Positions 1 to 19,712 of a stretch of DNA of 64,000 bases are shown one piece after another. Under the pieces are notes generated by a model. It did no database searches and was not told where the DNA came from. It worked only from the letters and a program-made list of their open reading frames with translations. Within the stretch, counting starts at the first letter, position 1, and each line of letters begins with the position of its first letter. Both the position numbers and the translations under genes were made by a program. Origin of the DNA: a virus (lineage: Duplodnaviria; Caudoviricetes); IMG/VR virus record IMGVR_UViG_3300026059_000005, positions 3,177 through 67,176 of that record, one strand, 5' to 3'.

Positions 1-3000
1 TCAACGCATCTGAGGCCCATTTCCCCACTTGAGGTTTCCACCGGAAAGCGACCTCGCGGTCTTGTTCGTAGATGGCATCCGCCACGGTTTCAAGGGTCGG
101 GAAAACCGTCGGCTCGGCAGGGTCATCAACATACCTCCAGTCGAATCTCTCAGAACCCCATTGGCCGTACTGCTGCAACCCGGTCGACCAGGAGATGGAT
201 TGATACCCGTTTTCGGCGGCCCACCTGACCATCCTCTTGATGGCCAAAAGGGGCCAGGTCTTTTGGAAGGGCGCTTCCGGAACGCTGGGCCCAAGGTTTG
301 TTTCCAGGTGATTTTGGTTGAAACCTAGCTGGGCGGTTTCGAAGTTGGCATTTTTTTCATGCCAAAATTTAAACGCGTTAACACCCTCGAATGCTTCTTC
401 GATACTGCCGAACAAAGATCGGTAATCGCGCATCCCCTCCATCCCAACATGGCGCGGGCGGATCTCGTCCTGCTGCGTCATGCTCGGATTAAAATAGGCA
501 GTTGCGACAAACCCAGGGCCGTCCTGTTCGATTTTCACGATTACGCGCTTGCCGCCGCCCTTGATGGGAACGCTGAACCTTACCTCGTTGGCGGTAAACA
601 TTGTTTTTTTATCGGTTAGCCCATACATGGGATTCCCGTTGTGGAAATATTCAATGACCAAATTTGGAATGCTGCTAAGCCTGGTCGTGACGATTGCGCC
701 TGGCCCCCTGTACCGCGACTTGCGCCCCTTCTGGTGCCAGTCGCTTTGGATCTCTTCGATGAAGAGCCGGGAGCCTCCGTTCAAATCGGGCCGCTCGGTA
801 AGGCGAACATGGACGACGACATTCTCCTCGTCCCAATGGCTGCGAACGAACTTCTCGCCCAGGCGCTCTTCGGTATCCGCGCCGGGGTCTTTCATGTAAT
901 CCTCGGAATCCGCTTTGTTCCCGGTGAAACGGACAACGCCATTCTGGTTAATGACGTCATACATCGGGTGCCCGATGAAATCGGTTTCTTCCTGGTTGAG
1001 CTCGAGGCGCCAGCCGCGGGGGCTCGGCCGCGGAATGATCAGCAGCAGCTCACGATAGCTGACCGGGGTGTTCATCCCCGAATTGATTCCCTGGATATAA
1101 CCAGCGTACTTGGCAGGGTTGTAAACTTCTTTAAGTTGTTCATTGAGAGTATCCGTAACGTCGCCCATGGCGTCTTCGTAAGCGCTATAACGGGTAGACC
1201 ACGTTTTGGCCACGCCGTCTTTTATTTTGGTCACCGCCCAGGATAGCTCGCCGTAATTCAATTTTGGCTCGATCACAAACAGCCCATCCGGAAGGAGCGC
1301 TGAAAACGTGGGGCCCATGCTGTCGGCCAAATCCCATTCAGCCTCTTCGTAGTTTATGATGGCCTCTCCAAAGCGGTTCCGGAGAGCGTCATCGACAGAT
1401 AGTTGCCCCAGGGTGGCGTTTTTTCGGGCCTCTTTTTTTATGAACTCAACGATTGCCATTTGGTCATCGTCGAGAAGCTGGATGATAATATCTGAACCTT
1501 CTCCGATGTTCATGTATTCCAGTATCGGGTTAGATTTCCCCCAATCAATATAGTGGGTGCCGTCATCCTCTGGCGGCTTAATGTCATATTGCCCGTAAAT
1601 TTCCTTGGGAATGCCCACCTGATGAACCGTTTCCACCACGCGGATGTTGCTGTTTGCCAGGTATTCGAGAATATCCTTGGTGGTCATCTTCTTGCTGGGA
1701 TTCAACGCAATGTATTCGCGCAGTCCGGACCAGTCGACCTCTTCCTCCTTGATATCGCCCTTCTTGGCCCAGGCGTTGACCGCTTTCAAAATCTGGTCCA
1801 CCGGGCCCGCCAGCTTGCGCTCTTTGATCACTTCCTCCATCTGCGAATAGAAGGGGCTCGGTCGCACGTTGCGCATGGAAAACAGCGGCATCCCCATTTG
1901 GACCGACCGCAGCTTGATCTCGGGGGTGATGGCGAACGCCGGGACCGTTTCGAATTTTTCTCCGCCCTCAAGAGGATGTAGCAGCTTGAACGCCTCGGGG
2001 TAATCGCGTTCAATTACTTTGTGAATCAATACCCCATTCAGGTTGCGTCCATTTTCGATCGATTTCGCGAACTCTTTTGCCTCTTTCCAGTTTTCTTTGT
2101 AGGCCGCATCATCGGATGGCTTTCGGTTCATGGCCTCAGAGCGGATGGCGTCGGCGATCTCCGCACGCTCTGTCTGGCTGTAGTCCCATTTGACGAATTC
2201 TTTTTCGCCGATCGGAATCCTGAGGGTTCCCACCCGGGCCTTTCCCCAGGCCGGCCGGTCGAAGAAACGATTCATTTCAGCTGGAAGGATCCGTTCATAA
2301 AAGCCGACCATGCCCTCGCCGCCGATGTCCAGGTCCACGCCCTTGAAGCTTTCGTACCCGGCCTCCACGCCCTTGAGTTTTTCCACCGCTTTTTTGGTGA
2401 GCTCCTTGCCGATGACCCCTTCCATCTTTTCTGGAGTAAGGTTGTCAAAAGTCTTGATAGGATTCAGCGTGCCTTTTTCGTAGGCCCGCACTTCATATCG
2501 GCCGCCTTTATCTTTTCGGACCATCACTTCGCTGATCCGCGTGCTCAACTTGTAGCGGTCGGCCTGCATCTTGCCGGTGGTCCAGGCCACCTGGTCATAT
2601 CCGTTTTCAGCCGCGTAGCGGATAATCCTTTTCATCGCCAACATGGCCCAGCTCCCCGTGTCTTGCACAAAGGGGCCGGCCGGAATGCCACGCCCAAGAT
2701 TCTTATTGTTCTCTGCTTGCAGCTCTCTCAAAACCGCTTGAGCTTCAGGTGTTCCGTTGGTGCCCTCATCAACAAACTTAAACCATTGCGCCTGCAAGGC
2801 AGCTTGTTTGACAGGATCGAAACCTTCTTGCTGGAATCCCTCCTTCCGCCCCTTTTGCCCCCAATCGCTTTGAACCTCCTGCAGGAAAAGGACTTTAATC
2901 GGAGGGGTGTATGGCGTGCCGTCAGCGGATGTGTAACGCTCGTCGAAGCGAATGTGAGCCAGAATATCTGGTTCCTGGTAGTGTGTGGAGCGGAAAGACT

Positions 3001-6000
3001 CTCGGTCTACAAGCTGTTTTTTCTGGTTACTGAGCCGATCAAATTCTGCATCATTACCGCTTTTCGCGGCCTCTTTCATTTTTCGCGTTAGCTCTCTTCT
3101 TTCTGCTTCATAGCTCTTTGCCGGCAACAGCAGCAGCAGCTCCCGGTAGCTTCCTTTTTTACCGCCGGGTATATTCAAATCAGGTGCTTTGTCGGGACCG
3201 AAAACGGCTGAACTTTCATCGCGCCTGACGGTATCGGCCACAATCTCGATCAGCCGCAGATCTTCTTGGGGAACCATTTCGAGCTCTGCAAGATTTGACC
3301 GGTAATCGCTCAGCGCGATGAGGGTGGAGCCGTATTTTCTCGGCAACATAATTTCGTTGGGGTAGGGCTCGCCATCCATGTTCTCCGAATATTCGATGGC
3401 GTAGCCGCGGTCCTCGAGCTCACCGATCGCCTCCTGGGCCGCCGCGATGGATTCCTGATCAAAAGATCCTTTGAGCACCTCCTCCACCCGGATGTTGTTT
3501 GTGGCCAGGTAATCGAGCACCTGGCGCTTGGTGACCTTGCCGGTTTGCTCGGCGGCCCAGTTCTCGATTCCGGACCACATCAGCTCGTCGCGGCTGATCT
3601 GTCCAGACCGGACATAGCTTTCCAGCAGGGGCATCAGATCGCCTGCAGGTACGCGCCCGGGCATCTTGTCCGCGATGTGCGCTTCCATCCGCGAATACCA
3701 GACGGGACCAGGGGCCGACTCTGGCCGGCGCATAGACGCCTTGAGGTCGGGGGTTCTGCCGATCGCCTTGAGGGCCTTACCCATTTCGATCGTACCGCGG
3801 CGGGTGAGCTCGGCGAAATCGGTCCCGGTGTGGTAGGAGCCATGGGCGCAGGTCGACTGGCAGGTTTGACAGGCGTCCTTGCTGGCGGAGATCCCGCAGC
3901 AAAGCGAGGAAGGATCTTTGCGCAAATGGCCGGCGAGAACGCTGAAGATCTTTTCCTGGTCGGCAGGCTTGTAGTTCGCCTTGATGTATTCCTCTACCTT
4001 GGTGTAGGGCTCCGACTCGCCGGCCTCGAGGCTCGCCTTTTCCTTTTGGCGCAGGATCCGCCATTCGCCGTCGACCTTGCGTACCGCGATCTGATACTTG
4101 AAGTTAAGCGCGTTGGCCTGGGTGATTGGAGCCCCTTCGATGTCGGACCACATCCCCGGGCGCAGCTTGGCGTGCATCCAGGTCTGGAGCACCTCCGGCA
4201 TCCGGAGGGCGTATTCGGCGATCTCCTTGGGCGTGGCCACCACGACCCTCGGTAGGAACTTCAGCTTGGGATACTTTTTCGCCAGGCCCTTCAGTTGCTC
4301 CCAGCTGTAGCCGTATTTGCGGAACACCTTCCCGTTGAGAACTTTAGCCTCGCGGTGGAATTCCTTCTTGATGGTGTCGGCCGCGCCCTGCAGGTCGCCG
4401 GCGTTGATCTTGTCGATGACCCCCAGGCGCCGGGTGGCGGAGCCCGCAACGTCGTCCACGCCCATGACCTCGACCCAGTAGGGATCGATGGAGGTCTGGA
4501 TCACGGTGTTCGCCGCGAGCGTGCTGCCGATCTTTTTGGATTTGCGGATCCGGTCGATCACCTCCATGGTGGCGTCCTGCTTGGTGATAACCTTGAGCAT
4601 CAGGCCGCGCATTTCGGCGTGCCGGAATATGTCCGCCCATTGGCCAAAGTCCTGGATCTGCGTGTCGCCCATCCCGTTGACGCGCAGGCCGCCGGCAGCG
4701 TTCAGCCGGGCGACGTCGCCGTCCTTCATCTGCAGGATCTCCGCGGTGTACATGGCGGAGTTATAATAGTTCACGATCTGGCCGGCCTGGGCCAGGCCCA
4801 CCACATAGCACCCGTCGATGTAGCAACCATGAAGGCCGACGGTCATCATGGGGCACATCGTGTTCAGGTTGAGGGCGGCCATGGTCTTGTCGGCTTTGCG
4901 CAGGGGCCGGCCGATGGCGTAGTCCTTCTTGCTCGCCATGTTGGCAAACGTGAGCCCCAGCTCGCCTTTCACGGCAATGGCCGGATCGCTGTAGGCCTCC
5001 TCGATGGAGCGCACGATGGCGCGGCGGAACGATTCCGCGGTGTCGGGATCCGTTGAATGCAGGGCATCAAGATAGGTCTGGGCAAAAGACCGGTAGAACC
5101 CCTTGAACCTCGGGACGATGTCGCCCTTCTTGTTGAACTTGCCCTGGCCGGTGTCGACCTTGGTCCTGGCCTCGATGTCGTCTTTGAGGATGTGGCCGTT
5201 TTTGTCCAGGATCCGCACGCCGGCCCGCCGCTCGATCTGGCGGATCTTCTTGACCATGTAGGGATTGGCGTCCAGCTGGGCGTCGATGTTCTGCCAATGC
5301 TGGGGCGGCCTTCCACCGCCGCCCAGGCCCAGGGCCCGGTCAAGCACGGCCAAAGCGTCGAGGTCGTTTCCGATCGCGATGTCTTCGGCGCTCATCATCC
5401 CGCGCTCGAATGCCCGGTTGATATCCCTCCGGCGCAGGCTGAACGTGCCCTTGAGCTCGGAGATCGAGCGCTTCTCGTCGTTCATCTGGAGGATGGCGGC
5501 GCCTGAATTGCTGAACGGAACAATTACCCTGCCAAGCGTGTTCTTTTCCGTAAGCGATTCTCCAGCCTCCAGGACATCCATCACTCGATTTCCCGCGCTT
5601 ATACCGCCGGCCACCCGGCCGATAAATACGCGCATCTCGGGAGATAGCTTGGTTGGAGAAACAAATATCAAACCGTTGGAGTTGGTGATCTCCATCGCCT
5701 TGACGATTTCGGCGAATGCGTCTAGCTGGGTCAAGTGGCTCAAGTTGTTAAGCCACCCCATGACGTTGTTCTGATTGTCCAGCAGCATGATGCCAGCGGT
5801 GTTGGGGTGGTTATCGGCGAGCCATTTTTTCGCATCGTCCGGTTTGGCCAAATGCGCTCCGACTCCGCTGGACGTCGCCGCCAGGAAGCGTTCCTTCACC
5901 GGGATCTTGAGCGTGCGCACGGTCGGACGGATCGACCGCGGTACCTGAAATTCTTTCGAATGCGAGCTGATGTCGACAAATTTGGAGCCCCCGATCACCA

Positions 6001-8611
6001 GCGAATGGACTCGAATGCCCTCGGCAGCCCCCAGGGCCTCAAGCCTTTGCGCCATTCCGATATCCTCGACGCTGGGCTCAACGCCACCAGACGGGTGGTT
6101 GTGGGCGAAGACAACCGCCTTGGTTCCCGGGGTGTTCCCGGCTCGGCCCATAACCTCAACCGGGTCCACATTGGCCGAATTTTTAGTTCCCTTGCTGTAG
6201 CGATGGATCTCAAGCACGGTCCCATCGCCGCCCAGCATGACGACAAACGCATTCTCCTGGGCCGCTTTACGAATCGGAGCCAGCAGGCTCGCAGCGTCAT
6301 CTACGGACAAGACCACATTGCCGGCCGCGGCGATGTGACCGGTGGTCTGTACCTTGACCCGGAAGATCTTTTCGAGGTTGACCCCTGGGACTTCGGGCGG
6401 TTTCAGGTCAAAGAGCGCGAGCTGCTTTTTCCCGGCCCTCTTCTTGACGCTGAATTTCGGCTCGTCCAGCTCGGTGTCGCGGGCGGCGGCGAGGGCCTCC
6501 GCAAGCTTCATCCCCTTCGCGTCCATCTCGTCGGCGTGCCCCTCGGCCGCCATGACCGCCTCATGCAGGAACTGGGCGCGGTAGGCCTGGGTCATCGCTT
6601 GCTCAAGGGCCTCGAGCTCGGGGGCCTGCGTGAGCTTCTTGGCGCGGTCGTTAATGAGGGTGTACAGCCGGCGCATCTCGTCGACTTGCTCGATCGTGGC
6701 AATCCGGCCGAATGCGATCGCATCGTTGCTGCCGATGAACTCCGGGATCCCCAGCTCGGATTCCACATTCATCCGGACGCTGGCGGTGATGTCGGTCTTG
6801 GTGGGGTCGAACGTCCCGATATTTCCGATCGAGGACTTGATCTGCGTAGGCTCAAAGGGCATGAAATGCACGGCCCCTATGACCCCCTGCATCCCAGGAA
6901 GACGCACGCCCATGGCCCCACGACGCGGCCCAAAGTGCCTTTCGGCGTCCATCACGATACCGTCGTAGCCCAGCTCCTTGACGATATCTTTCAGTATCGC
7001 CCCGCTGGAAATCGAATCGCCGGTGTCGGGATCGACAGGATACAGCTCCGCCAGGACTGCCATGATATCGCCGCCGCCGATCTCGGAGCCATCCACCATC
7101 ATTTCGTAAAGCTTGCCGGCAACGTCGTTGATCTCTCTTTCGGAAACTTCATACCAGCCCAACACCTCGCGTAGCGCCTCAATCAGCTTGACGCCCTCGC
7201 CGCGCTCCTCGACGACCTCTTCGCCGTCCTCGGAATACTCTATTTCAATGCCGATGGGCGTGTAGCTCTTGCCCATGCTCTTAACATCGTCCAGGTAGAA
7301 CGGCTTCTCCATTTTCAGGAAGGCAGGATAGATCGCGCCCTCATGCTTGCCGGCGATCGCGTTTTTGGCGGCCATGGAGATGGCCTCATCCAGATACTCA
7401 TCCCGTAGCTTTTCAAATTCCTCGTCGGTATCGAGCAAATCGTTTACGTCAACATCGCCAAGTATCTCGGGGTTCTCCCAGAAATAATCGCTCAGCAGAT
7501 CGCGCGCTTCATCATTTCCGACGTCGCCATACTTTTCTTTTTCAAGCTCGATCCGGCTGGTAAGGTCAGGGCCCATGCCGGCATAGTTGGCGTTCACATC
7601 GTCATAAGAAGAGGAAAAATAGAACCCCTTTCCCATGTAGTTTCCTACATGACCTCGGGTGTCGCTAAAAGACTTAAAGTCGTGGGTGCTGCCATGGAAC
7701 ACGACCATGGGCTTGCCTTTTTTGTCCACGATCTGGGACTTGCCGAACCACTTCTTGAACGCCTTGGTATTGGTATTGACCGATGCCCGCAGGGGGCGGG
7801 CGCGTACCAGGGTGCCCGGAGTGATCTCCGCCCCCGGCCAATTGCGCCGGGCCCGCTCGAGGGCGTGCTCGTAATTCATGCCCTTGATCGCGTCTATCCA
7901 CTCATCGCCCCCGGGGTATTTCACCGTGACGTTGAGCTCCGCCGGGTACCGGGTTTCCTCGAACCCCTTCTGGTCGCCCGGCTTCCCGAATCCCATGAGG
8001 TTGTCAGGGACGTTCGCATAGGGGCGATTGGGATCCCGGGTGAACCGCGGCTTGGGCTCACGGTACATCGACTCGCGCATGGTGAAATCCTTGCGCCGGC
8101 CCTTGTTTTCGACAAACCCGAAATTCTTGTAGAACTTGACCAGGCGCCTCCTGGAGGTGGTCCCGTGGAAATCGTCCTTCGTCGCCGGGGTCAGGTAGAC
8201 GTACTTGCCATCGCGGTCGGCCAGGTTGACGATGTCCCGCATCACGCTCGAGCCGATCCCACGCCGGCGCTCGCCCTTGGGAACGATGAGCGAGAACAAG
8301 GTGATGCCACCCTTCGAGCTCGGGTGCTGGGTTTCCGACAAGGAAATGGTGACCCCCCGGGCCTCCCACTTGTCCTGGATATCCTGAATGGTATTGAGCT
8401 CCGCCGGCGCCGCGGGGGCCTTCTCCCGGACCTGGCCCTCGATGTCCTTGCGCTCGTCCTTCAGCTGCGCGATGTAGTCCTTGACCGCCTCGACGGCGGC
8501 CTTATGAGCTTCGTATCCTTCGGCCCGGTAGTCTTTCACCGCGCCGTTGATGATCGCTTGCTCATGCGCTTCGAGGCCTATCTTGGAAAGGCATTTTTTA
8601 AGGGAGCTCAT
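1..8611 (-). CDS. Giant polyvalent (ejection/internal virion) protein, N-terminal >2870 aa, runs off the left edge. Domains: GNAT, ART, JAB x2, radical-SAM-like, QSDW domain x2
   Basis: Not in the ORF track. ATG at 8611 overlaps the upstream stop (TGATG). Manual translation in the frame with codon starts = 1 mod 3 was open at all segments checked down to base 2. Motifs: ERRRGIGSSVM...LVKFYKNFGF (GNAT); KWFGKSQIVDKKGKPMVVFHGS...GKGFYFS...QIKSSIGNIGTFD (ART); QEN...AHNHPSGGVEPSVED (JAMM); CPMMTVGLHGCYIDGCY; LQEVQSDWGQKGR and IEEIQSDWHQKGR. Confidence 0.9.
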   Translation of the reverse strand, partial: MSSLKKCLSKIGLEAHEQAIINGAVKDYRAEGYEAHKAAVEAVKDYIAQLKDERKDIEGQVREKAPAAPAELNTIQDIQDKWEARGVTISLSETQHPSSKGGITLFSLIVPKGERRRGIGSSVMRDIVNLADRDGKYVYLTPATKDDFHGTTSRRRLVKFYKNFGFVENKGRRKDFTMRESMYREPKPRFTRDPNRPYANVPDNLMGFGKPGDQKGFEETRYPAELNVTVKYPGGDEWIDAIKGMNYEHALERARRNWPGAEITPGTLVRARPLRASVNTNTKAFKKWFGKSQIVDKKGKPMVVFHGSTHDFKSFSDTRGHVGNYMGKGFYFSSSYDDVNANYAGMGPDLTSRIELEKEKYGDVGNDEARDLLSDYFWENPEILGDVDVNDLLDTDEEFEKLRDEYLDEAISMAAKNAIAGKHEGAIYPAFLKMEKPFYLDDVKSMGKSYTPIGIEIEYSEDGEEVVEERGEGVKLIEALREVLGWYEVSEREINDVAGKLYEMMVDGSEIGGGDIMAVLAELYPVDPDTGDSISSGAILKDIVKELGYDGIVMDAERHFGPRRGAMGVRLPGMQGVIGAVHFMPFEPTQIKSSIGNIGTFDPTKTDITASVRMNVESELGIPEFIGSNDAIAFGRIATIEQVDEMRRLYTLINDRAKKLTQAPELEALEQAMTQAYRAQFLHEAVMAAEGHADEMDAKGMKLAEALAAARDTELDEPKFSVKKRAGKKQLALFDLKPPEVPGVNLEKIFRVKVQTTGHIAAAGNVVLSVDDAASLLAPIRKAAQENAFVVMLGGDGTVLEIHRYSKGTKNSANVDPVEVMGRAGNTPGTKAVVFAHNHPSGGVEPSVEDIGMAQRLEALGAAEGIRVHSLVIGGSKFVDISSHSKEFQVPRSIRPTVRTLKIPVKERFLAATSSGVGAHLAKPDDAKKWLADNHPNTAGIMLLDNQNNVMGWLNNLSHLTQLDAFAEIVKAMEITNSNGLIFVSPTKLSPEMRVFIGRVAGGISAGNRVMDVLEAGESLTEKNTLGRVIVPFSNSGAAILQMNDEKRSISELKGTFSLRRRDINRAFERGMMSAEDIAIGNDLDALAVLDRALGLGGGGRPPQHWQNIDAQLDANPYMVKKIRQIERRAGVRILDKNGHILKDDIEARTKVDTGQGKFNKKGDIVPRFKGFYRSFAQTYLDALHSTDPDTAESFRRAIVRSIEEAYSDPAIAVKGELGLTFANMASKKDYAIGRPLRKADKTMAALNLNTMCPMMTVGLHGCYIDGCYVVGLAQAGQIVNYYNSAMYTAEILQMKDGDVARLNAAGGLRVNGMGDTQIQDFGQWADIFRHAEMRGLMLKVITKQDATMEVIDRIRKSKKIGSTLAANTVIQTSIDPYWVEVMGVDDVAGSATRRLGVIDKINAGDLQGAADTIKKEFHREAKVLNGKVFRKYGYSWEQLKGLAKKYPKLKFLPRVVVATPKEIAEYALRMPEVLQTWMHAKLRPGMWSDIEGAPITQANALNFKYQIAVRKVDGEWRILRQKEKASLEAGESEPYTKVEEYIKANYKPADQEKIFSVLAGHLRKDPSSLCCGISASKDACQTCQSTCAHGSYHTGTDFAELTRRGTIEMGKALKAIGRTPDLKASMRRPESAPGPVWYSRMEAHIADKMPGRVPAGDLMPLLESYVRSGQISRDELMWSGIENWAAEQTGKVTKRQVLDYLATNNIRVEEVLKGSFDQESIAAAQEAIGELEDRGYAIEYSENMDGEPYPNEIMLPRKYGSTLIALSDYRSNLAELEMVPQEDLRLIEIVADTVRRDESSAVFGPDKAPDLNIPGGKKGSYRELLLLLPAKSYEAERRELTRKMKEAAKSGNDAEFDRLSNQKKQLVDRESFRSTHYQEPDILAHIRFDERYTSADGTPYTPPIKVLFLQEVQSDWGQKGRKEGFQQEGFDPVKQAALQAQWFKFVDEGTNGTPEAQAVLRELQAENNKNLGRGIPAGPFVQDTGSWAMLAMKRIIRYAAENGYDQVAWTTGKMQADRYKLSTRISEVMVRKDKGGRYEVRAYEKGTLNPIKTFDNLTPEKMEGVIGKELTKKAVEKLKGVEAGYESFKGVDLDIGGEGMVGFYERILPAEMNRFFDRPAWGKARVGTLRIPIGEKEFVKWDYSQTERAEIADAIRSEAMNRKPSDDAAYKENWKEAKEFAKSIENGRNLNGVLIHKVIERDYPEAFKLLHPLEGGEKFETVPAFAITPEIKLRSVQMGMPLFSMRNVRPSPFYSQMEEVIKERKLAGPVDQILKAVNAWAKKGDIKEEEVDWSGLREYIALNPSKKMTTKDILEYLANSNIRVVETVHQVGIPKEIYGQYDIKPPEDDGTHYIDWGKSNPILEYMNIGEGSDIIIQLLDDDQMAIVEFIKKEARKNATLGQLSVDDALRNRFGEAIINYEEAEWDLADSMGPTFSALLPDGLFVIEPKLNYGELSWAVTKIKDGVAKTWSTRYSAYEDAMGDVTDTLNEQLKEVYNPAKYAGYIQGINSGMNTPVSYRELLLIIPRPSPRGWRLELNQEETDFIGHPMYDVINQNGVVRFTGNKADSEDYMKDPGADTEERLGEKFVRSHWDEENVVVHVRLTERPDLNGGSRLFIEEIQSDWHQKGRKSRYRGPGAIVTTRLSSIPNLVIEYFHNGNPMYGLTDKKTMFTANEVRFSVPIKGGGKRVIVKIEQDGPGFVATAYFNPSMTQQDEIRPRHVGMEGMRDYRSLFGSIEEAFEGVNAFKFWHEKNANFETAQLGFNQNHLETNLGPSVPEAPFQKTWPLLAIKRMVRWAAENGYQSISWSTGLQQYGQWGSERFDWRYVDDPAEPTVFPTLETVADAIYEQDREVAFRWKPQVGKWASDAL

Positions 8612-9410: not shown

Positions 9411-9663
9411 CAGTCAACCGCCTTATCTCTTCTTTGAGTAGGCTGTTTTCAATCAGGACCGCATTGGACGCGGCATTCGAAGTGTTAAGCGCCTGCTGGA
9501 CGATGCTCTGCTGGATCGCCTTTTCGATGAGCCATTGTTTTTTTTCGGCCTCGAGCATGATGATGATTTGTTTGGCGTTATTGAGCTGGCCCTCGAGCTG
9601 GGTGATCCTCGAGGTGGCCCCCGCGTAAAGCTTCTGGAACTTTTCAAGGTCAGTCATTGTCAT
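9394..9663 (-). CDS. Small coiled-coil protein (possible fibre chaperone)
   Basis: 89 aa with heptad pattern (ITQLEGQLNNAKQIIIMLEAEKK); follows a fibre-like gene. Confidence 0.6.
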   Translation of the reverse strand: MTMTDLEKFQKLYAGATSRITQLEGQLNNAKQIIIMLEAEKKQWLIEKAIQQSIVQQALNTSNAASNAVLIENSLLKEEIRRLTDGNHG

Positions 9664-11510
9664 CCATCAAGCGATAAAATAGCGGTTAAGGTCGTGTCTG
9701 CCGCCGTGGATATCACCCCCGATAAGGGCCCTGTTTTGTAGTATGGCGCGGCGGAAGATTTACGCGCCCAGCCTACCACGTTTTGGTTGGCGCCAATAGC
9801 CCGCGACATGGAAATCTCGCCGCCGGTGTCGGTCAGTCCTTCCAGAAAAACGAACGAACACTTGATCGTCCCGGTGGGGTCGCTGCCAGGCGAGCTCGCC
9901 ATGTCGTAGGTATAGCTGTTGTCGCCGGTTTTTGTGATTGTGAAAACGCCGTTATTGGCGGCCAAGCTTGCTCCGGAAATGACCACCTTGTCGTTGGTCA
10001 GCATCCCGTGGCTGGTGTGAGATACGGTGGCCGTCGTCCCGCTGTTGGTGATGGTGACCGTCGCGTCGTACGGGAATCCGCCGGAGGCCGCCGCCGCGGT
10101 TTTAAGCAACACTCTCGCGCTGCCTATCTTGGTGCCATCGGCAGTTTGCACGACCGCCTTGACCGTGCGTGAGCTCGTTACGATCACGATGGTCGCGCCG
10201 TCGCTTCGGTAGGAGGGCGCCGTGCCTCCAGAAATCGTCAGCGTTACAGTCCCGGATGTCCGCTTGAAATGCAGAGCGGAGTCGTTCACGTTGTTGCTCG
10301 CGCTGAACCCGGTCAGGATGACGTTGGTGAGCGTCATGGATGTTGGGCTGTTTAACCCGAACTCAATGGCGTGATGGGCATTCGCGCCCTTCACAAAAGT
10401 GCATCCGTTCAAATCGGTGTTGGGATCGGTATTGACGTCCCAGACCAGGGCGGAGGTGTCGGCAGCAACCGATGGGGAATCGAAAAGCGTTCCGGCGAAT
10501 TTCGCGTCGTTTGCCGTGATCGTGTTGCATCGGCGGAACACGCTGGCCAGGACGTCGCTCGCCGCCTTGAAGATGAACGTGTCCATGTCCGTGAACGTGC
10601 ATCCTGAAAAATTGACATCGCAATCATCTATGACTTCGAGCGCACCTTTTGAAGCGGTTGTCGAGGGCGATGTGCAAGTGATGTTAATACCCGTCCAATC
10701 GACCCTGGAGGTCGCCTGGCGGATTTCGATCTTGTTGAACGCGGAGGAAACCTTGCGGCACTCCTGAACAAAGATGGCCGCGTTGGAATCGCGGAAGTCC
10801 ACCGCGTTCGAATATCCAAGGGTCATCAACCCCTTCCATTGATACCCACCGGGAACCGCCTGGATCAAGCCCCACCGGGCGCCGATGGCATCGTTTGCAG
10901 CGGCAAACCCGGAAAAGGTCGCGTACCCGTTGGTGCCGTCGCCATACCGTATCCGGGCTTCCCCGCGCCCAAAGCGCACGCCGTCCACCTTGTGCGGCTG
11001 GCCTTTCGACGGCCCGGCGGCGGTCATCAGAATCGCCATGCCAACGTGCTGCAGGGTCGAGGAGGGCGAGCCCTCGGTGTAATCTGGTGTAAGCGTCGGA
11101 TCTATCGCATGGTTGTACCAGCCGCCGGTCGGGTACGGCGGGGCGTTCTTTCCTGAAATCTTCCACGCCTTGAACGCGGCGGTGGAGCTCCCAACGCAGG
11201 CGCGGACTCCGCCATTTTCGATGGTGTCCAACAGGGCGCCGGCGTCGAACTTGTGCCATATAAAAAAAGCCCCGTTGGTCGGAACCGTCACACCGGAACC
11301 ATAGTCGAAAGCGATCGAGCCGACGCCTGACTTTTGCGCGGCGGCAGCGGACGCATGATAGTTCCCCTGAAAGATATCGTCCGTATCGTTGTTGACTGGG
11401 GTGCCGCCAGCGTTGTAGGCAACGGTTGTCCCGGCCAGCTCCTCAACCGTGCCGGTATTTTCGGCCAGGTTGAAAATAGAAAGATCGGTTTCGTAGGCAG
11501 GCGCAGTCAT
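9660..11510 (-). CDS. Tail fibre/spike-like structural protein (beta-helix-like middle, small beta insert near the C-terminus)
   Basis: Start moved to ATG 11510 (MTAPAYETDL), just after the stop of the upstream gene. T/G/S/A-rich; repeats such as VNFSGCTFTD and LNGCTFVK. Confidence 0.75.
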   Translation of the reverse strand: MTAPAYETDLSIFNLAENTGTVEELAGTTVAYNAGGTPVNNDTDDIFQGNYHASAAAAQKSGVGSIAFDYGSGVTVPTNGAFFIWHKFDAGALLDTIENGGVRACVGSSTAAFKAWKISGKNAPPYPTGGWYNHAIDPTLTPDYTEGSPSSTLQHVGMAILMTAAGPSKGQPHKVDGVRFGRGEARIRYGDGTNGYATFSGFAAANDAIGARWGLIQAVPGGYQWKGLMTLGYSNAVDFRDSNAAIFVQECRKVSSAFNKIEIRQATSRVDWTGINITCTSPSTTASKGALEVIDDCDVNFSGCTFTDMDTFIFKAASDVLASVFRRCNTITANDAKFAGTLFDSPSVAADTSALVWDVNTDPNTDLNGCTFVKGANAHHAIEFGLNSPTSMTLTNVILTGFSASNNVNDSALHFKRTSGTVTLTISGGTAPSYRSDGATIVIVTSSRTVKAVVQTADGTKIGSARVLLKTAAAASGGFPYDATVTITNSGTTATVSHTSHGMLTNDKVVISGASLAANNGVFTITKTGDNSYTYDMASSPGSDPTGTIKCSFVFLEGLTDTGGEISMSRAIGANQNVVGWARKSSAAPYYKTGPLSGVISTAADTTLTAILSLDG

Positions 11511-11511
11511 A

Positions 11512-11985
11512 TTATTTCCCGTTAGCCAGCTGTAGATCTTTCGCAGCAGTTCCCAAATCCGCGAGAACATCCCGCTCCGTTCTTCCGACTGGCAAAAGAA
11601 CGTGTTTATTTCGTCCGAATCCGGAACCCACCACCACCGCATTGCCGGCTTTCACCAAGTCGGCAATGAGCCCCCTGGCGGCAGGGCTCCGCCAGGCGTC
11701 AGGGCGTCCGGGATCTTGCAGCGCGAGATAGGTATCGGACTTTGGAAGCTTCTCGAACACTATCTTGCATTTGTCCGGTCGCAACGCCTGGGACAATTCC
11801 CCATGTTGATACCAGTAGCATTCGAAACGCTGGCAGGATGGCGGCCTGGTTTCGTAGATACCGCACCCCTCTCCGATCTGGCAGAACTTGCACCAGACGT
11901 AGACGGGTTTGTCGAGCTCTGGTACCGATGTGAGGCGGCAGCATAAAGTACACGCCCCACACCGGTTGTTCAGATGGGCCACCAT
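11512..11985 (-). CDS. YkgJ-family CxxCxxCC cysteine-cluster (Zn/Fe-S chelating) protein
   Basis: CGACTLCC plus C..C...GCGIYETRPPSCQRFEC, the characteristic pattern of the CxxCxxCC family. Confidence 0.8.
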   Translation of the reverse strand: MVAHLNNRCGACTLCCRLTSVPELDKPVYVWCKFCQIGEGCGIYETRPPSCQRFECYWYQHGELSQALRPDKCKIVFEKLPKSDTYLALQDPGRPDAWRSPAARGLIADLVKAGNAVVVGSGFGRNKHVLLPVGRTERDVLADLGTAAKDLQLANGK

Positions 11986-11987
11986 GA

Positions 11988-13661
11988 TTACGCGTCGCTG
12001 GTACGGTTGGCCGTTGCCGTCCCGCCGCCGGTGGTAAGGTTCGAAGTGGTTTCGAAGGTTTTGATCGGAGTCCCTCCACCGTCGCGCACGCGCACGAACA
12101 TCGTTCGATCAGCTGAGTATTTGATCGTAACTGCCTCCTGATCGGCCTCCGCGTCTTTGTCGATATAGGCCAGGAACACGTTGTTCCCAGCCGTCGCATC
12201 CAGCGGGTCGGTGAAGTCGGTGGACGCGATCGTAAAATACCGACTGCCGTCGTGGGCGGAGTAAGGAACCATGCGGTAAACGCCGGTGTCGAGCCTGATT
12301 CGCAAAGTTCCCGTTTGAGGCGTGTCGGCCGGGATGTTGCCGACGCCAACGTCCACCTGGGTTTGGCCCGCCGCGTTGAGAGTGGTGCCCAGGGTCAGCT
12401 GATCGTAATCGATCGCGTTGCCTTGCGCGTTGGTCACCAGCACTCGGTCACCAACCACCAGGCCGTAGACCGTGAACACTACGTTATTCGGCGGCTGCCG
12501 CAAGGTGTTGGTAAGATCGAAGAGCTTGTCGCTTGTGGTCAGATCCTCCGCTTCGACGCCGATTCCGAACGCGCCGATCAGGGTTGTGCCGGTGGACTGT
12601 CCGATAAAGACCGGTGACAGGGACCGGGTCGTCGGAGATCCGTTCACCGTGCAAGTCTTAGCGGATGAGCCTCCCGTGATGGTGGCCGATGCCGCCGGCG
12701 GAACGCCCTTGGTGAGCTGGATCCACATGGTGCCGGTCGTGCCCGCGTCGTTGACCGCAAGCAAAACACCTTCGCCGGCCGTCAACCCGGTGCCCCAGGT
12801 CAGGACTTCGTTCTGGGTCCAGTCGCCCGCCCCGGTTTCAGAGGTGTAGGCCCATTGGTGCGTGATGCCGCGGAAGAGCTCGGCATCCATGCCGTACAGG
12901 GTTTCGGCGGTGCCGCGGCGGGTGAGCCACTTGGCTCGCTCGTACAGCTGGTTGATCGAATAGGTGGCCTTGTTCCATTGGCTGTAATACGGCTGGGGGC
13001 CATCCCCGTTCTGCAGGTCGATCGTCTGGTAGCCCTCGACGTTTGAAATGGTCGTCCAGCCGGCAACCGTTCCGACCGCCGTCGCATTGTTGAGGTCGGG
13101 CGAGGTGAAGATAGCCGCGACGCTGTTGCCCAGGCCCATCGTGACCTCGAACTCCGCGTAGGTGTGGCCCCACTCCCGCGCATACACCCGGATGCGCTTG
13201 CCGTCGATATCGGCCGCCGCGGTGCGGGTTTTTACCATGCACCGCATCAGGATGTTGGCCCCAGCGTCGGCGTTCAGCCCGGTGCCCCAGAACGGCGCGT
13301 CAGTATCATACAGGCCGTTGTTTTGAACGATCTGGAGCGTCGTCGTCCCGGCGATGGCGCCCACCACCACCAGGCCCGAATAGAGCTCGTCGCCCCCTGC
13401 CTGCTGGATGGAGCCGTCGTACAGATACTCTGCCGCGTCGTCGTCGATATTGTACGGCGCGTTGAGCGTGATGATGTTGTCGGTCGCCCGCTCGCTGGGG
13501 GTGGCGCTGGTGATGTCCATGAGGTCATTCCCGGCCGCCGCCGCGTCATCGGCCAACCCCTGGAGCCAGCGGTGGAACTCCAAGACGGTGTAAGTGGTGC
13601 TGCCGGAAACGTGGCGAATGTCACCGTTAACAGCAATGGAAAAATCATCGGAAATGGTCAT
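11988..13661 (-). CDS. Virion structural (tail-associated) protein
   Basis: 557 aa, T/G/A-rich beta composition, RBS GAAGGAG, tail context. Confidence 0.75.
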   Translation of the reverse strand: MTISDDFSIAVNGDIRHVSGSTTYTVLEFHRWLQGLADDAAAAGNDLMDITSATPSERATDNIITLNAPYNIDDDAAEYLYDGSIQQAGGDELYSGLVVVGAIAGTTTLQIVQNNGLYDTDAPFWGTGLNADAGANILMRCMVKTRTAAADIDGKRIRVYAREWGHTYAEFEVTMGLGNSVAAIFTSPDLNNATAVGTVAGWTTISNVEGYQTIDLQNGDGPQPYYSQWNKATYSINQLYERAKWLTRRGTAETLYGMDAELFRGITHQWAYTSETGAGDWTQNEVLTWGTGLTAGEGVLLAVNDAGTTGTMWIQLTKGVPPAASATITGGSSAKTCTVNGSPTTRSLSPVFIGQSTGTTLIGAFGIGVEAEDLTTSDKLFDLTNTLRQPPNNVVFTVYGLVVGDRVLVTNAQGNAIDYDQLTLGTTLNAAGQTQVDVGVGNIPADTPQTGTLRIRLDTGVYRMVPYSAHDGSRYFTIASTDFTDPLDATAGNNVFLAYIDKDAEADQEAVTIKYSADRTMFVRVRDGGGTPIKTFETTSNLTTGGGTATANRTSDA

Positions 13662-13682
13662 CGGTGGATCTCCTTCTGGGGT

Positions 13683-14090
13683 TTATTTTTTTTCAACATG
13701 GGCGGCCAGGGATATGATCCGCCCCCAGGCGTCACGCTCGGTGACCCGCAGCTGGATGTCCTGGATGACCTCGGTCTTAAAGGTCGGAATCTCCCGCCGC
13801 GATTCGACGATGGCGGCGGTCAGGTTCTCCATGGTCTGCTGGGTCAAGTACTGGATTTCGGCGATCCTGTCTATCAGGACTTCATTGCTGGGGGGCGCAA
13901 TCGCCTGCCGCTCCAGCATGGCCTTGGTCAGGGTGTGAAGATCGACCAGCCGCTTGATGGCGCCGGTGATCTCCTTGAGGACGTCGGCCACCTCGTTCCT
14001 GGCGACCTTTTCCACCTCGGCCTTGACCGCGGCCTTCTTGATCAGTTGGACGCCGGCGTCAATGTCGGCTTTCGTTAGCTGTTTAGGCAT
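13683..14090 (-). CDS. Hypothetical helical protein
   Basis: 135 aa ORF, coupled to the upstream ejection gene. Confidence 0.65.
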   Translation of the reverse strand: MPKQLTKADIDAGVQLIKKAAVKAEVEKVARNEVADVLKEITGAIKRLVDLHTLTKAMLERQAIAPPSNEVLIDRIAEIQYLTQQTMENLTAAIVESRREIPTFKTEVIQDIQLRVTERDAWGRIISLAAHVEKK

Positions 14091-17000
14091 TCGAGTAACC
14101 TCTCCGCGAAGTCCATCTGCTTATCGTTTTCGGCGATCGCCTCGCTGGCCTTTGATTTCACCCGGGCGATATTGCCTTCCGCATCCATGGCGGTGACCTC
14201 GATCTCGACATCCTTGCGCTTCAGGCTCGCCCGCATCTGGCTTTCGGCCTCCGGCTTCCCGCCGCGCACGCCCTCTACAAAGACCTGGTCAAACGGCTCC
14301 AGCTTGAGATCCTCTTTCCCCTGCAGGAGGATAAAGCCGTCGCTGGTCCACCCGGCCTGCTGGTAGCGCTTGCCGTCGATCTGGACTTCCTGGCCCTCGA
14401 GAAAGTCGCCGGCGACCTGGCGGTCCATCACCACCTGCCACCCCTCATCCTCGAGGTTCTTGATCGTTTCCTGGGCATCGCGCATCCGCGCCATCTCGGG
14501 GTCGGTGTCTTGGACCTCGAGCATGACGTCGATCAGCTCGCGAAATCTCCAGTACTGTTTGAAGGTGAGCTTCTTGCCGGTTTCGACGTTCCGGACGATG
14601 GCGTCGAATTCCTTCCGGGACCATTGCCCGCCTTTCATCCCGAACCATTTGGGATAGGTCGTTCCGACGATGTGATTCAACCCGGGCTCGCGCCCGCCGC
14701 GCTCGACCATTCCCTGGTGGACCTGGGTCTTGATGTAATCCCAGGCGTCCAGGAGCTCGTCCGGGACCACCACCGCGCCCTTGTTCGCCTTCCGGTACGC
14801 GGATACCTCCGAAAGTAGGCGCTCAGAGTCATCAGCGATCGATGCCTTGAGCTCCTCGGTTTTCCCAGGCTCACCTACAGGCCCCTCGGAGATCTCCTCG
14901 CCTTGGGCCTCTGGTGCGGTCGCTTTTTTGGCTTTCTTGGCTTTTTTGGCCTGAGAGGCAATTTCGGCCTTCAGGAGGCCCACCTTCTCAGCTGAGCTCA
15001 TCTCGTCGTCGGTCGGCAGATCGGCCAGGCGTTTCTTTTCCGCAGCCGGCAGGTTGCCCCAGAGGTGATCGAACTCCTGCTGGGGGGTCATCTTTTTCTT
15101 GGCCGGCTTTTCGGCCGGCTCTTCGGCGGGCGCCTCGAGGTCGATATCCTGCCACTCGGATCCCTCCCCTGCCACCACCGGGCTCGCTTGGGAGGGTGTC
15201 ACCTTCGTAGTGACCTTAGTCCCTATGGTTTTCGCCTCGGCAGCAGCAGGGGAGAGAGCGGTGCCAACGGCCTCGACCACCTTCTGGCCAACGGTCTTTT
15301 CAACCGGCTGGACAGTTTGGTCGACCACCGTTTTGCGCCGGGCGAACTCCACATAGACGCCGGCGAGAGCGTCCTGGACCTGATCCAGCTCTTTAACGAA
15401 TTCCTTGTCGGCGGAATCCTTGCGCAGGCCCAGGGCCGATTTGATCTTTTCCACCAGGTCGAAAACATACCGGGCCAGCTTTTGCCCCAGGGTGGGATCG
15501 GCCGCGTTGACCTTTTCCCAGAAAGCCTTTTCCTTGAACTGGGATCCGGCGAAATCGGCGATGAACTCCTCGCGGGTGAGGGCCTCCTCCCGGGTTAGCT
15601 CCTGGACGCCGGCCTCCTTGCGGATGTCGTTCTGCTTGGCGAGCCAGGCGTCGAACCCCACCTCGTTGCCCTGGATCAGCGTGGCGATTTTGCCGTAAAG
15701 ATCGGGTGCCTCGCTCTTTATCTGATGCAGGGTTTCGTGCCCCAGCACGACCGCGAACGGGTCCGCGGAATTCTCGTTGATGAAGACGGTATTGCTCCCC
15801 TCGTCGTACAGGCCATTGAAAGAGTTGGAAGCCCCCTCGCCCTTGAAGAAAACGACTTTGGCCCCCAGGGCCTGGCCAATCTGCTGGACCATCCCCATGC
15901 CTTCGCCGCCCCTGGCCTCGCTGACAGCAACCTCCTCGCCTGCAGGAAGGGCGTCCTTCAGGTGGACCGACAGATAGGACTTGAGGGTGGCCAGGTCTTC
16001 AGGGGTGGCCGCGGTGTAGGTAGACGGCCCGGCGACCTCGAGCTCGCCGCCGGCCGCCAGGATCATCTCCTCCATGCGCGGGATGATCGGATTGTCGGGC
16101 CATTGCTCCCGGGCCTTGTTGAGCGTGCTCTGGATCTCATTGACCGAAATCGCGCCGGTTTCCAGGCCGGCCTCCATGGCATCGGCCGTCTTTTCGTAAA
16201 TCGGCAAAAGGATCTCGGTGAACTTCTGAGCGTCCTTAACGCTTTTGACGCTGCGACCGACATGGATCGCGGGACCGCCTACCCCCAGGAGCGCCATGCC
16301 AGATGCGACTTTCTTGGCGACCTCTTTCAGCTGGTCGGCCGTTTCCTCGGATCCCAAGGCCTCGATCACGTTCTCGTTGTTCATTATCGCCTTGGTGATG
16401 ATCCCCGGGAGCTCCTGCATCACCTCAGTCCCGGTTTCGCCGCCGACTCCAATGATATAGTCCTTCGCCGCTTCCAGTATTTTTTCGCGCAAAATCTTGC
16501 TCGATTTCACAAACGGCCGGATGCCGCCCTTGGTCACGCCCTTCAGGCCCGGGACCAACTTCAGGGCCGCCTCGAACCCAACCATTTCGAAGGCGCCGTC
16601 AATGGCTCCGATTATGTCGGCCGCGACCGCCTTGGTCTGGACATCCCATTTGTTCTCGGTGTCCTCCTCCATTAACTCCTTGAAAGCGAGGCCGCCCTCG
16701 ACCGCCTTGGATCTGCGATAATACTGCATCCGCATTGCCATACCGCCGGCCGCTGCCATAGCGGCTGGTATGGTAATCGGAGCCAGCGGACCAGACACAA
16801 CACCCGCGGCGACCCCAGCCCCAACGACCCCAGCTGCCAGGGCCGCATAGCCGCCGGTCAGGTACGGGTTCATCTGATCATCCATGAGCTGGTTGACCTG
16901 CTGGCCGATGAGCTCCCCCGCAGCGGGAAGCATACTGGAAAGACCCTCCTCCGTAGAATTGTAACCCATAACCTTGTCGAGGATGTCCAGGTACTTCAGC

Positions 17001-17695
17001 TCTTCCGGCGTGAGGTCTTTGCCGGCAACCATGGCCTGGCGGCGCTTCTCCCAGAGCATCCCGGCCCGGTCCATGGCCGCACCGGAAAGCGCGTCCTTGA
17101 CCGTGTCGCTTTCAAGCCAGCTGTCGGGTATGGCGCCGTGCGCCACGATCCTCATGTAGTTGGAGGCCTCCTCGTTCTGGCGCTCCTGCTGGGCTTTCTT
17201 TTCAGCCGCCTTCAGGGCCGCGGCGGCTTCTTGCTCCGGAGTCATGGCCGGCTTTTTTCTGCGCTTCGCAAGATTATGAAGGCTCTTCATGCCACCCGGG
17301 ATCGGCGGCGTGAAAGCTTCCTCGCCCTCATCGGGGGCGTTCAGGTCAAGCGTTTCCCACTCCTCCTCCGCGGGCGCTTCCTTTTTGGCAGCTGGGGTTT
17401 CAGCCGGAGCCGGCTCGCCGGTCTTGGTATCGATTCCGCCGACAAAACGATTCGGGTGATCATCGGACTTGAAACGCGAATCCCAATGATACTTACCGTC
17501 CTCCTCGTTGTACTCGGGCTCGACGCCGGCCCTGAAGGCCGCCCGGTAGTCGTACATATGCCGGGGGTCGTCCGGGTTGGGATCGAGCCCGGTCGTGTCG
17601 GCTACCCTGGTGTACCAGTCCCGAAACTCGGGCTCGTCATCAGGGCCGTCCGCTTCGAGATCGATCTCTTCCCAGTCAGCTTCGGCGCCGTTCAT
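14075..17695 (-). CDS. Large internal virion/ejection protein with a zincin-like HExxH domain
   Basis: 1206 aa. Hydrophobic Gly/Ala segment (GGYAALAAGVVGAGVAAG) typical of ejection proteins. FNGLYDEGSNTVFINENSADPFAVVLGHETLH...EEFIAD matches the polyvalent-protein metallopeptidase (MPTase) pattern. Confidence 0.8.
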   Translation of the reverse strand: MNGAEADWEEIDLEADGPDDEPEFRDWYTRVADTTGLDPNPDDPRHMYDYRAAFRAGVEPEYNEEDGKYHWDSRFKSDDHPNRFVGGIDTKTGEPAPAETPAAKKEAPAEEEWETLDLNAPDEGEEAFTPPIPGGMKSLHNLAKRRKKPAMTPEQEAAAALKAAEKKAQQERQNEEASNYMRIVAHGAIPDSWLESDTVKDALSGAAMDRAGMLWEKRRQAMVAGKDLTPEELKYLDILDKVMGYNSTEEGLSSMLPAAGELIGQQVNQLMDDQMNPYLTGGYAALAAGVVGAGVAAGVVSGPLAPITIPAAMAAAGGMAMRMQYYRRSKAVEGGLAFKELMEEDTENKWDVQTKAVAADIIGAIDGAFEMVGFEAALKLVPGLKGVTKGGIRPFVKSSKILREKILEAAKDYIIGVGGETGTEVMQELPGIITKAIMNNENVIEALGSEETADQLKEVAKKVASGMALLGVGGPAIHVGRSVKSVKDAQKFTEILLPIYEKTADAMEAGLETGAISVNEIQSTLNKAREQWPDNPIIPRMEEMILAAGGELEVAGPSTYTAATPEDLATLKSYLSVHLKDALPAGEEVAVSEARGGEGMGMVQQIGQALGAKVVFFKGEGASNSFNGLYDEGSNTVFINENSADPFAVVLGHETLHQIKSEAPDLYGKIATLIQGNEVGFDAWLAKQNDIRKEAGVQELTREEALTREEFIADFAGSQFKEKAFWEKVNAADPTLGQKLARYVFDLVEKIKSALGLRKDSADKEFVKELDQVQDALAGVYVEFARRKTVVDQTVQPVEKTVGQKVVEAVGTALSPAAAEAKTIGTKVTTKVTPSQASPVVAGEGSEWQDIDLEAPAEEPAEKPAKKKMTPQQEFDHLWGNLPAAEKKRLADLPTDDEMSSAEKVGLLKAEIASQAKKAKKAKKATAPEAQGEEISEGPVGEPGKTEELKASIADDSERLLSEVSAYRKANKGAVVVPDELLDAWDYIKTQVHQGMVERGGREPGLNHIVGTTYPKWFGMKGGQWSRKEFDAIVRNVETGKKLTFKQYWRFRELIDVMLEVQDTDPEMARMRDAQETIKNLEDEGWQVVMDRQVAGDFLEGQEVQIDGKRYQQAGWTSDGFILLQGKEDLKLEPFDQVFVEGVRGGKPEAESQMRASLKRKDVEIEVTAMDAEGNIARVKSKASEAIAENDKQMDFAERLLECLNS

Positions 17696-18909: not shown

Positions 18910-18921
18910 CGGACATCTCCT

Positions 18922-19704
18922 TTACATTCGCCCTAGGGCGTTGGCCGTGCGACGGTCGTAATAGCCTCGCGTGTATTCGAGCTGCAGGTTTCCGCCTGGG
19001 TCGCGTTTGTAGAAAAGATCGCCCGGGCCGGCATTCGAGAATCCCACTCCTCCGCCGGCTCCACCCGATTCGTTGGTGGTCGACTCCTTGGTGGCGCTCT
19101 CGAGGTAGGTCTTGTAGGCGTTGTTGTAGGCCGTCATCATGCTTTCCGTTTTGGCCTGCCAGTTTTTCTGCGCCTCTTGGGCCAGCAGGTTGAGCTCTTG
19201 CTGATGCTCCTGGCGCGCCTGGCTGCCGGCGCCGGCCATCGCGCTCTCGAGCCCGGTACCGTACCCCTGGAGCGCCTCACGCAACGTCATGCGCCTGACG
19301 TTGGGGTTGTCGCTGTTGACGTTCATCGCCCCCTGCAGGCCTTCACGCAGCTTGCGCACCGCGGGCGCGGAGATCTCCTGGGTCAGCGCCCGAATCTTGC
19401 GCTTGTCAGGTTTTGGCATTGTCAGCGTCGGGAGATCCGGGAGCTCGGGGGCCTTCCCATTGAAAATGGTTCTGGTAATGGTTTGCCTGCTGCCGCCCCC
19501 ACCGCCACCGCCGCCGACCCTGGATCCGCCAGAGCTCGACCTTGAATTGGGGGTCAGGGTCCAGTCGTTATCACCAGGCCCAAAGCGAGTGACATAACCT
19601 CCGCTTTCCAGAACTGGGTATTTCACGCTGCCGCCGCCAGCCACCCCCTGCGATTCTTCGCCATACCTTCCGGGTGTGTAATTTCCAAAATATGAAGATG
19701 CCAT
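18922..19704 (-). CDS. Putative small ejection (pilot-like) protein
   Basis: Start at ATG 19704 with RBS AGGAGG; Gly/Ser/Gln-rich helical composition. Confidence 0.65.
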   Translation of the reverse strand: MASSYFGNYTPGRYGEESQGVAGGGSVKYPVLESGGYVTRFGPGDNDWTLTPNSRSSSGGSRVGGGGGGGGSRQTITRTIFNGKAPELPDLPTLTMPKPDKRKIRALTQEISAPAVRKLREGLQGAMNVNSDNPNVRRMTLREALQGYGTGLESAMAGAGSQARQEHQQELNLLAQEAQKNWQAKTESMMTAYNNAYKTYLESATKESTTNESGGAGGGVGFSNAGPGDLFYKRDPGGNLQLEYTRGYYDRRTANALGRM

Positions 19705-19712
19705 GAGTCCTC

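Follow-up and report, generated by a model that had tools for sequence, protein, structure and literature searches.

A radical-SAM-like module with two conserved cysteine clusters in a giant polyvalent phage protein

The giant gene and its cysteine-rich module

The window analysed here is a stretch of 64,000 nucleotides covering positions 3177–67176 of a 67,176-bp IMG/VR virus record (IMGVR_UViG_3300026059_000005), and translation reveals a single minus-strand open frame at its left end, the first 2870 codons of which fall within the window. As this frame stays open to the first base of the IMG/VR record, the encoded protein has at least 3929 residues; a relative 77% identical to it is 4491 residues long. 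Pfam places a GNAT-like region at residues ~95–168 (sub-threshold), an ART-PolyVal domain at 296–344 (E = 1e-16) and a RadC/JAB domain at 771–877 (E = 2e-17), and with all three in one chain it qualifies as what Iyer et al. 2017 (PMC5512222) call a polyvalent protein. Our subject is a further module of this giant protein, residues ~1165–1600, which carries two clusters of cysteines and has a predicted fold like that of the radical S-adenosylmethionine (SAM) enzymes.

The first cluster is found in frame in the string LNTMCPMMTVGLHGCYIDGCYV, where the cysteine codons start at window positions 4855, 4825 and 4810 and specify residues 1253, 1263 and 1268 (Cx9Cx4C). Downstream of it come LRVNGMGD (4664–4687), KVITKQ (4577–4594) and IQTSID (4484–4501) and then the second, C-terminal cluster, CCx8Cx2Cx3C. 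An earlier reading of this DNA, referred to here as the original prediction, had quoted these strings, and translation recovers every one of them in frame where it had been placed. Its description of a non-canonical Cx9Cx4C motif accompanied by a second cysteine cluster likewise holds, with the C-terminal cluster conserved in relatives. The protein of at least 3929 residues contains 9 cysteines in total, 8 of which are inside one stretch of 336 residues; the probability of this arrangement arising by chance is ~3e-7 (binomial, corrected for the number of windows), and the pattern is far beyond chance. Outside the module there is only 1 cysteine in ~3590 residues of the giant protein. Among giant relatives the cysteine content is 1.8 per 100 residues inside the module versus 0.08 outside, a 22-fold difference, and the depletion outside the module may have evolved to suit packaging, ejection or passage through oxidising conditions.

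Residues 1165–1600 were modelled with AlphaFold2 on a 41-sequence alignment, giving a predicted local distance difference test score (pLDDT) of 84 and a predicted template modelling score of 0.85. The model begins with two N-terminal helices and then β1 (model residues 80–83), with Cys 89 right after this strand, followed by a short helix and then by Cys 99 and Cys 104. Five further strand-helix units complete the barrel, interrupted by a ~70-residue insertion after β4 and another insertion after β6, and the C-terminal cluster is modelled with low confidence (pLDDT ~40–60). The model of a standalone homologue of 232 residues (P0110) has a pLDDT of 92, with β1 at residues 11–14 and the cysteines at 20, 29 and 32, and in both models the triad is positioned directly after β1 and before α1. 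The original prediction had proposed that AlphaFold be used to look for a partial triose-phosphate isomerase barrel, and a (β/α)6 barrel with the triad in the loop after β1 is indeed what is predicted. In wide structure searches with VIA-align the first 31 and the first 36 rows were all radical SAM enzymes, and Foldseek identified viperin at E 5.5e-5. Judged from these models, the fold is very probably radical-SAM-like.

The likeness to the minimal-core radical SAM enzymes, namely QueE (5TGS), spore photoproduct lyase (SPL, 4FHC), viperin (5VSL) and the PFL-activating enzyme (PFL-AE, 3C8F), extends from the (β/α)6 partial barrel to its details: three cysteines in the loop after β1, an acidic G-x-G-[DE] ending β2, a small polar pair ending β3 and S/x/D at β4. 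Conserved polar residues occupy the C-terminal ends of the strands throughout (G-x-G-D, T-K, S-x-D, R and T-x-x-H), and Cys1253, Cys1263 and Cys1268 are the putative ligands of a SAM-binding [4Fe-4S] cluster. In its standalone form (215–250 residues) the module also equals PFL-AE and QueE in size. It differs from the minimal-core enzymes in the spacing of its triad (Cx9Cx4C, Cx8Cx2C or Cx6Cx2C versus Cx3Cx2C), in lacking any Pfam or NCBIfam match, in its own N-x-K-T before β1 and [ST]-x-C-P at the first cysteine, and in sitting within a 4000-residue phage protein. The C-terminal cluster (Cx5-9Cx2Cx3C) is unlike the CX2CX5CX3C of SPASM/twitch proteins; its Cx4-5Cx2C core faintly resembles plant-type ferredoxin motifs, and neither SPASM nor Fer4 gave a Pfam match on the domain.

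The cysteines could instead form a chance pattern, or a purely structural one such as a disulfide or zinc staple in a non-enzymatic spacer domain, given that the activity of the module is itself a prediction and that its C-terminal cluster is poorly modelled. We consider this very improbable, as the whole triad is retained by 113 of the 114 relatives covering the motif, across subfamilies at ~25% identity, while cysteine is extremely depleted elsewhere in the protein and the barrel is a confidently predicted one of enzyme type with conserved polar strand ends.

Table 1. Features of the giant gene, its module and its gene run (window positions)
Feature	Position	Strand	Detail	Basis
Giant polyvalent protein gene	2–8611	minus		translation; Pfam domains
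Radical-SAM-like module, residues ~1165–1600	3812–5119	minus	N-terminal helical extension, (β/α)6 barrel with two insertions, C-terminal Cys cluster	
DKT, β1 strand (LNLN) and cluster loop	4802–4891	minus	TMCPMMTVGLHGCYIDGCYV	model, family conservation
β2, ending G-x-G-D	4664–4705	minus	LNAAGGLRVNGMGD; at the radical SAM 'GGE' position	family-wide conservation
β3, GLMLKVITKQ	4577–4606	minus	near-invariant T-K; K1344 invariant or nearly so	family conservation
β4, VIQTSID	4484–4504	minus	S-x-D; S1374 and D1376 conserved	family conservation
β5, LPRVVVAT	4232–4255	minus	conserved Arg1455; follows the subfamily-specific ~70-residue insertion	conservation, model
β6, VLQTWMHA	4169–4192	minus	conserved Thr1477 and His1480	family conservation
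C-terminal cluster, residues 1571–1588	3848–3901	minus	CCGISASKDACQTCQSTC; Cys1571, 1572, 1581, 1584 and 1588; putative auxiliary metal site, Fe-S or Zn	
GTFSLRR, residues 1055–1061	5429–5449	minus	candidate processing motif upstream of module	motif counts, relatives
LKASMRR, residues 1623–1629	3725–3745	minus	candidate processing motif downstream of module	motif counts
Tail-fibre or baseplate-like protein	22001–27295	minus	1764 residues	in giant gene's run
P22-like portal	35245–37527	minus		in giant gene's run

Relatives of the module and its genomic setting

Residues 1130–1640 were used as a HMMER query against 1.84 billion cluster representatives (50% cluster level), yielding 126 relatives at E ≤ 1e-3 and 55 at E ≤ 1e-30. 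Almost all of the 126 are phage polyvalent proteins of 2000–5800 residues, and the Pfam content of these giant relatives varies (RadC, ART-PolyVal, LPD38, PF18834, methyltransferase, M23). When the giant protein was tiled on 134 relatives, only residues ~1126–1625 were common to most of them, the flanks being present in 3–17 of the 134, so this central region is a module shuffled among giant proteins.

The relatives form two main groups. Group A, which includes the window copy, has Cx9Cx4C followed by Y and a C-terminal CCx8Cx2Cx3C; group B has T-x-C-P-Q-M-x-x-N-x-G-C-x-Y-C-Y (Cx8Cx2C) and CCITGRCATCxGKC; and there are also a small Cx6Cx2C group and standalone proteins of 215–270 residues, the standalone family having four invariant C-terminal cysteines (Cx5Cx2Cx3C). 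Common to all groups are N/D-x-K-T, [ST]-x-C-P, Y-x-G-E-I-L, L-N-x-x-G-G-L-R-x-x-x-x-G-D, G-L-x-L-K-x-I-T-K-Q, x-S-x-D, R-x-V and T-x-x-H, followed by the C-terminal cluster, and the window copy keeps every one of these motifs intact. An hhalign comparison of the window's subfamily (A2) with the standalone family (A4) gave a probability of 99.1% and E 5e-19.

The family is large (126 clusters at 50% identity) and almost confined to uncultured phages. Searches of Pfam, PHROGs, NCBIfam and PDB sequences gave no match to the module, and PHROGs returned nothing useful for the standalone members. Scans of IMG/VR found four related loci, and a genome-contig scan found two contigs of metagenome-assembled genomes (MAGs), one of Pseudomonadota and one of Acetobacteraceae, too few for a host to be named. 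Unlike the polyvalent proteins of phages and conjugative elements, the module has no match in 72,556 plasmids, and of 50,697 GenBank phages a single one, Moorella phage MTATph1, has it, as a standalone gene near DNA polymerase. Other standalone members adjoin thioredoxin, class II ribonucleotide reductase, NUDIX and thymidine kinase genes at one locus, ribonucleotide reductase, UvrD and ThyX genes at a second, and PolA, RecA and PD-(D/E)xK nuclease genes at a third; the first two of these are nucleotide-metabolism blocks, located at L011:3651–9254 and L013:1–8816.

The giant gene comes last in a long leftward gene run, whose portal and tail-fibre genes are upstream of it and on its strand (Table 1). 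The original prediction had placed the module inside a virion protein; the polyvalent domains and the position of the gene at the end of a structural operon are consistent with this. The remaining large genes of the run gave no match. Those between the tail-fibre-like and the giant genes (window 9660–21592, minus strand; 1206, 660, 557, 446 and 405 residues) have no Pfam match, and the one PHROG match, weak and from the 660-residue gene, is to a function-unknown family; they may be the ejection proteins of a podovirus lineage yet to be described. A tblastn search with the C-terminal 1059 residues of the giant protein found no match among GenBank phages, and thus nothing connects the protein to a virion protein confirmed by proteomics, such as Bcep22 gp75.

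In chaining unrelated enzymatic modules within a giant protein, in being encoded with virion genes and in the swapping of its modules, this system is like the polyvalent proteins described by Iyer et al. 2017. It is unlike them in that the text of that paper (PMC5512222) contains no radical SAM, Fe-S, cysteine or TIM-barrel domain.

The module is also bracketed by copies of a short motif, [FA]-S-[VLM]-[RKN], which occurs 7 times in the giant protein versus 0.8 expected, a count reached by 0 of 2000 shuffles. The sites are at residues 276, 610, 720, 1057, 1625 and 2244 (window 7786–1868) and, beyond the window, at residue 3097, and they are placed between modules. Two relatives, P0167 and P0168, have the motif at the corresponding junctions (GTFSLRR/GTFSLRRK ahead of the module and L[KR]ASM[RK]RP behind it, for example), and a third, P0169, lacks it. 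The junction motif may be a protease processing code that frees the module as a ~570-residue piece.

Weighing a radical SAM function

The predicted fold, the position and conservation of the cysteines, the strand-end residues, the shuffling and the polyvalent context are direct results of the computation; on them we base the reading that residues ~1165–1600 are most likely a divergent radical SAM enzyme with a second metal site, with a probability of about 0.55. In the mechanism that we propose, the triad would hold a [4Fe-4S] cluster whose free iron binds SAM, and reduction would cleave SAM; the resulting 5'-deoxyadenosyl radical would attack a substrate inside the barrel, with the C-terminal cluster serving as an auxiliary Fe-S or Zn site. 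The module would be one interchangeable effector cassette, perhaps excised at the F/A-S-x-R/K motifs on either side of it, and is probably capsid cargo, which would become active in the newly infected cell. On balance we slightly favour an active, SAM-cleaving enzyme.

Several results weigh against this interpretation. The Pfam Radical_SAM profile (PF04055) has no match to the window domain even at E ≤ 10, and none across the phage's own genome. In favour of the reading, Radical_SAM is the Pfam family that the relatives match most often, though always below the cut-off of 29.5 bits: these matches are seen in 6 of 38 standalone members (best E 2.4e-4) and in 4 of 8 other relatives (E 0.006–0.06), and span profile positions 3–8 to 115–157. 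Aligned by hhalign to Escherichia coli PFL-AE, either as a single sequence or as a 24-sequence profile, the family gave non-significant E values of 0.045–0.049 (for the profile, E 0.049 at ~1% probability); even so, the 88 columns that do align keep the structural register, which speaks for the reading, pairing SFGD with SGGE, ITKQ with DTNG, SVD with LDLK and VRAAIL with IRYVVV. Profile searches of PDB sequences (A3, A4) returned nothing significant, the best being a ferredoxin-like CxxGxCxxC at E 2.5, and global hhalign runs were uninformative. Sequence models thus do not confirm radical SAM membership. The canonical CX3CX(aromatic)C is absent from every family member: none of the 114 relatives covering the motif has Cx3Cx2C, their spacings being Cx8Cx2C, Cx9Cx2C, Cx6Cx2C and Cx9Cx3C, with Cx9Cx4C in the window, and in the window's subfamily a Gly rather than the usual aromatic residue precedes the third cysteine. 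As to the virion, the unmatched neighbours and C-terminus mean that 'virion protein' is a reading of gene position and protein class only, with no proteomically supported GenBank phage protein matching. Passage through the short tail of a podovirus probably requires ejection proteins to unfold at least in part; the enzyme would thereby lose an Fe-S cluster, which host machinery would have to reload, and the virions may find themselves in oxic water. An anaerobic host, which the original prediction had thought fitting, is only weakly addressed by the wetland source of the phage, the two MAG contigs and the occurrence of GP88 in phages of aerobes. The phage DNA occurs in wetland metagenomes, all of one year and several of them possibly its source, as found in a search of sequencing runs, and no RNA sequencing run containing it was among the runs listed.

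The same departures from the canonical enzymes could mean that the radical SAM fold was kept while its chemistry was lost or changed, the conserved cysteines binding Fe-S or Zn for non-radical catalysis, or for binding of, for example, nucleotide or DNA, without SAM cleavage. Every family member is non-canonical in spacing, the aromatic residue before the third cysteine is gone in the window's subfamily, G-x-G-D is found in place of GGE and T-K in place of T-N-G, and no sequence profile is significant. We regard this alternative as possible though doubtful. The β1 loop contains three rather than four cysteines, the arrangement that leaves one iron free for SAM, and the strand-end residues are conserved across subfamilies at the places where radical SAM enzymes bind SAM. 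Moreover, expanded or otherwise altered spacings are known from proven, working radical SAM enzymes, including QueE (Cx14Cx2C), ThiC (Cx2Cx4C) and HmdB (Cx5Cx2C).

The original prediction had also likened the module to GP88 proteins (PF17338, named after mycobacteriophage L5 gp88), which it took as established radical SAM proteins. The motifs it listed are accurate: a genuine GP88 protein (P0295; PF17338 match at E 6.6e-29) reads SCPx5Cx3CY within SCPNASECYKDCY, RLHSSGD within VVRLHSSGD and YTYTK within FYTYTKT, and has a C-terminal cysteine cluster. Our literature searches found no paper that calls GP88 radical SAM; the resemblance is real, but the word 'established' is not justified. In a T4-like contig of 238 kb, the gene for P0295 and that for a standalone member of our family are two genes apart (the pair occupying L012:4904–5599 on the minus and L012:6001–6762 on the plus strand), directly after genes for portal, prohead protease, scaffold and Gp23.

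GP88 and DUF7227 (PF23872) share with the module the motif order [ST]CP...C...CY, R-x-H-x-x-GD, Y/I-T-K and C-terminal cysteine cluster, a length of ~230 residues and restriction to viruses. GP88 differs in its cysteine spacing (Cx5-6Cx3C), and its hidden Markov model has no match to the window domain or to the 46 relatives scanned. With a single GP88 sequence, hhalign paired no more than 23 columns (E 0.003), and the standalone family (A4) against a 7-sequence GP88 alignment (A6) gave E 0.28; the original prediction had asked for HHpred against GP88 and radical SAM profiles, and by hhalign the family was not significantly similar to the GP88 alignment or to PFL-AE. In structure, GP88 models are among the best viral neighbours of P0110 in BFVD (E 3.3e-4, 2.8e-3 and 0.011), and viral proteins annotated as radical SAM rank in between them. 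By ESM-Atlas features the window domain is nearest to DUF7227 (0.94) and GP88 (0.92, 0.90) clusters, with GP88 clusters making up 18 of the top 30 matches. The GP88 resemblance thus consists of motifs, fold and language-model features only. GP88 is present in 389 GenBank phages, mostly of Mycobacterium and Streptomyces, where its annotation is always 'hypothetical', and as it has no published function, the likeness explains nothing yet.

Turning to what a radical SAM enzyme at this locus might act on, the barrel mouth carries conserved K, R, K, R and H residues, which point to an anionic ligand. Because of these basic residues, because the closest minimal folds (QueE, SPL, viperin and PFL-AE) act on nucleotides, DNA or protein glycine, and because standalone members neighbour genes of nucleotide and DNA metabolism, our best guess at the substrate is a nucleotide or DNA. 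Where the enzyme would act is a separate matter. It might be active in the producer cell, modifying the polyprotein, another part of the virion or the phage DNA before or during packaging, since Fe-S loading needs the assembly machinery of a cell and survival of the cluster through ejection is unlikely; the standalone member beside the GP88 gene is, besides, located among T4-like head genes. We think a role confined to the producer cell unlikely, as the module is found alongside ART, GNAT and RadC, effector domains typically directed at the host, and is swapped as they are, and most standalone members are found in nucleotide- or DNA-metabolism blocks, not beside Cys-rich substrates.

An injected effector acting on DNA or a nucleotide is, in its full form, likewise a tentative proposal that we hold to be improbable as a whole: it would be the first radical SAM enzyme to serve as an injected phage effector, carried as capsid cargo, refolded and cluster-loaded in the new host, and performing radical chemistry there. 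Its target might, for example, be the incoming genome, which it would alter, a nucleotide, which it would deplete or convert, or an immune signal, which it would destroy.

The known kinds to which the module relates are the radical SAM superfamily and the polyvalent proteins. The module family itself is in no paper that we found and is without annotation, and literature searches returned no paper linking polyvalent proteins or GP88 with radical SAM. If the radical SAM assignment is true, the family would be a virus-only radical SAM clade with its own cluster motif, extending to the GP88 proteins of hundreds of Mycobacterium and Streptomyces phages, and the possible GP88 link would be the first functional lead for a gene of hundreds of sequenced actinobacteriophages. 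To our knowledge, radical SAM enzymes carry out chemistry that is out of reach of every other enzyme class. Prokaryotic viperins turn this chemistry on phages, and with a phage-side family within injected multi-enzyme proteins, radical chemistry would join the known means of counter-attack. Such a family would also pose the puzzle of how an oxygen-labile Fe-S enzyme survives packaging and ejection. The standalone members, at 215–250 residues, are easy expression targets.

The record ends and a repeated element

The record is rated 100% complete by CheckV, and the giant gene runs off the start of the contig. Simple circular closure of the contig was considered as a way of completing the gene and rejected: a minus-strand frame is open at the right end (63147–63998), two bases out of register, so the record is without the end of the giant gene unless junction bases are missing.

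The giant protein also contains two copies of one unassigned module, recognised by QSDWGQKGRK (window ~2843–2869, residue ~1915) and QSDWHQKGRK (window ~719–745, residue ~2623), each of which is followed by a PLFSMR junction. Part of the first copy aligns with a stretch of the 2564-position profile PHROG 7348, whose label is endolysin.

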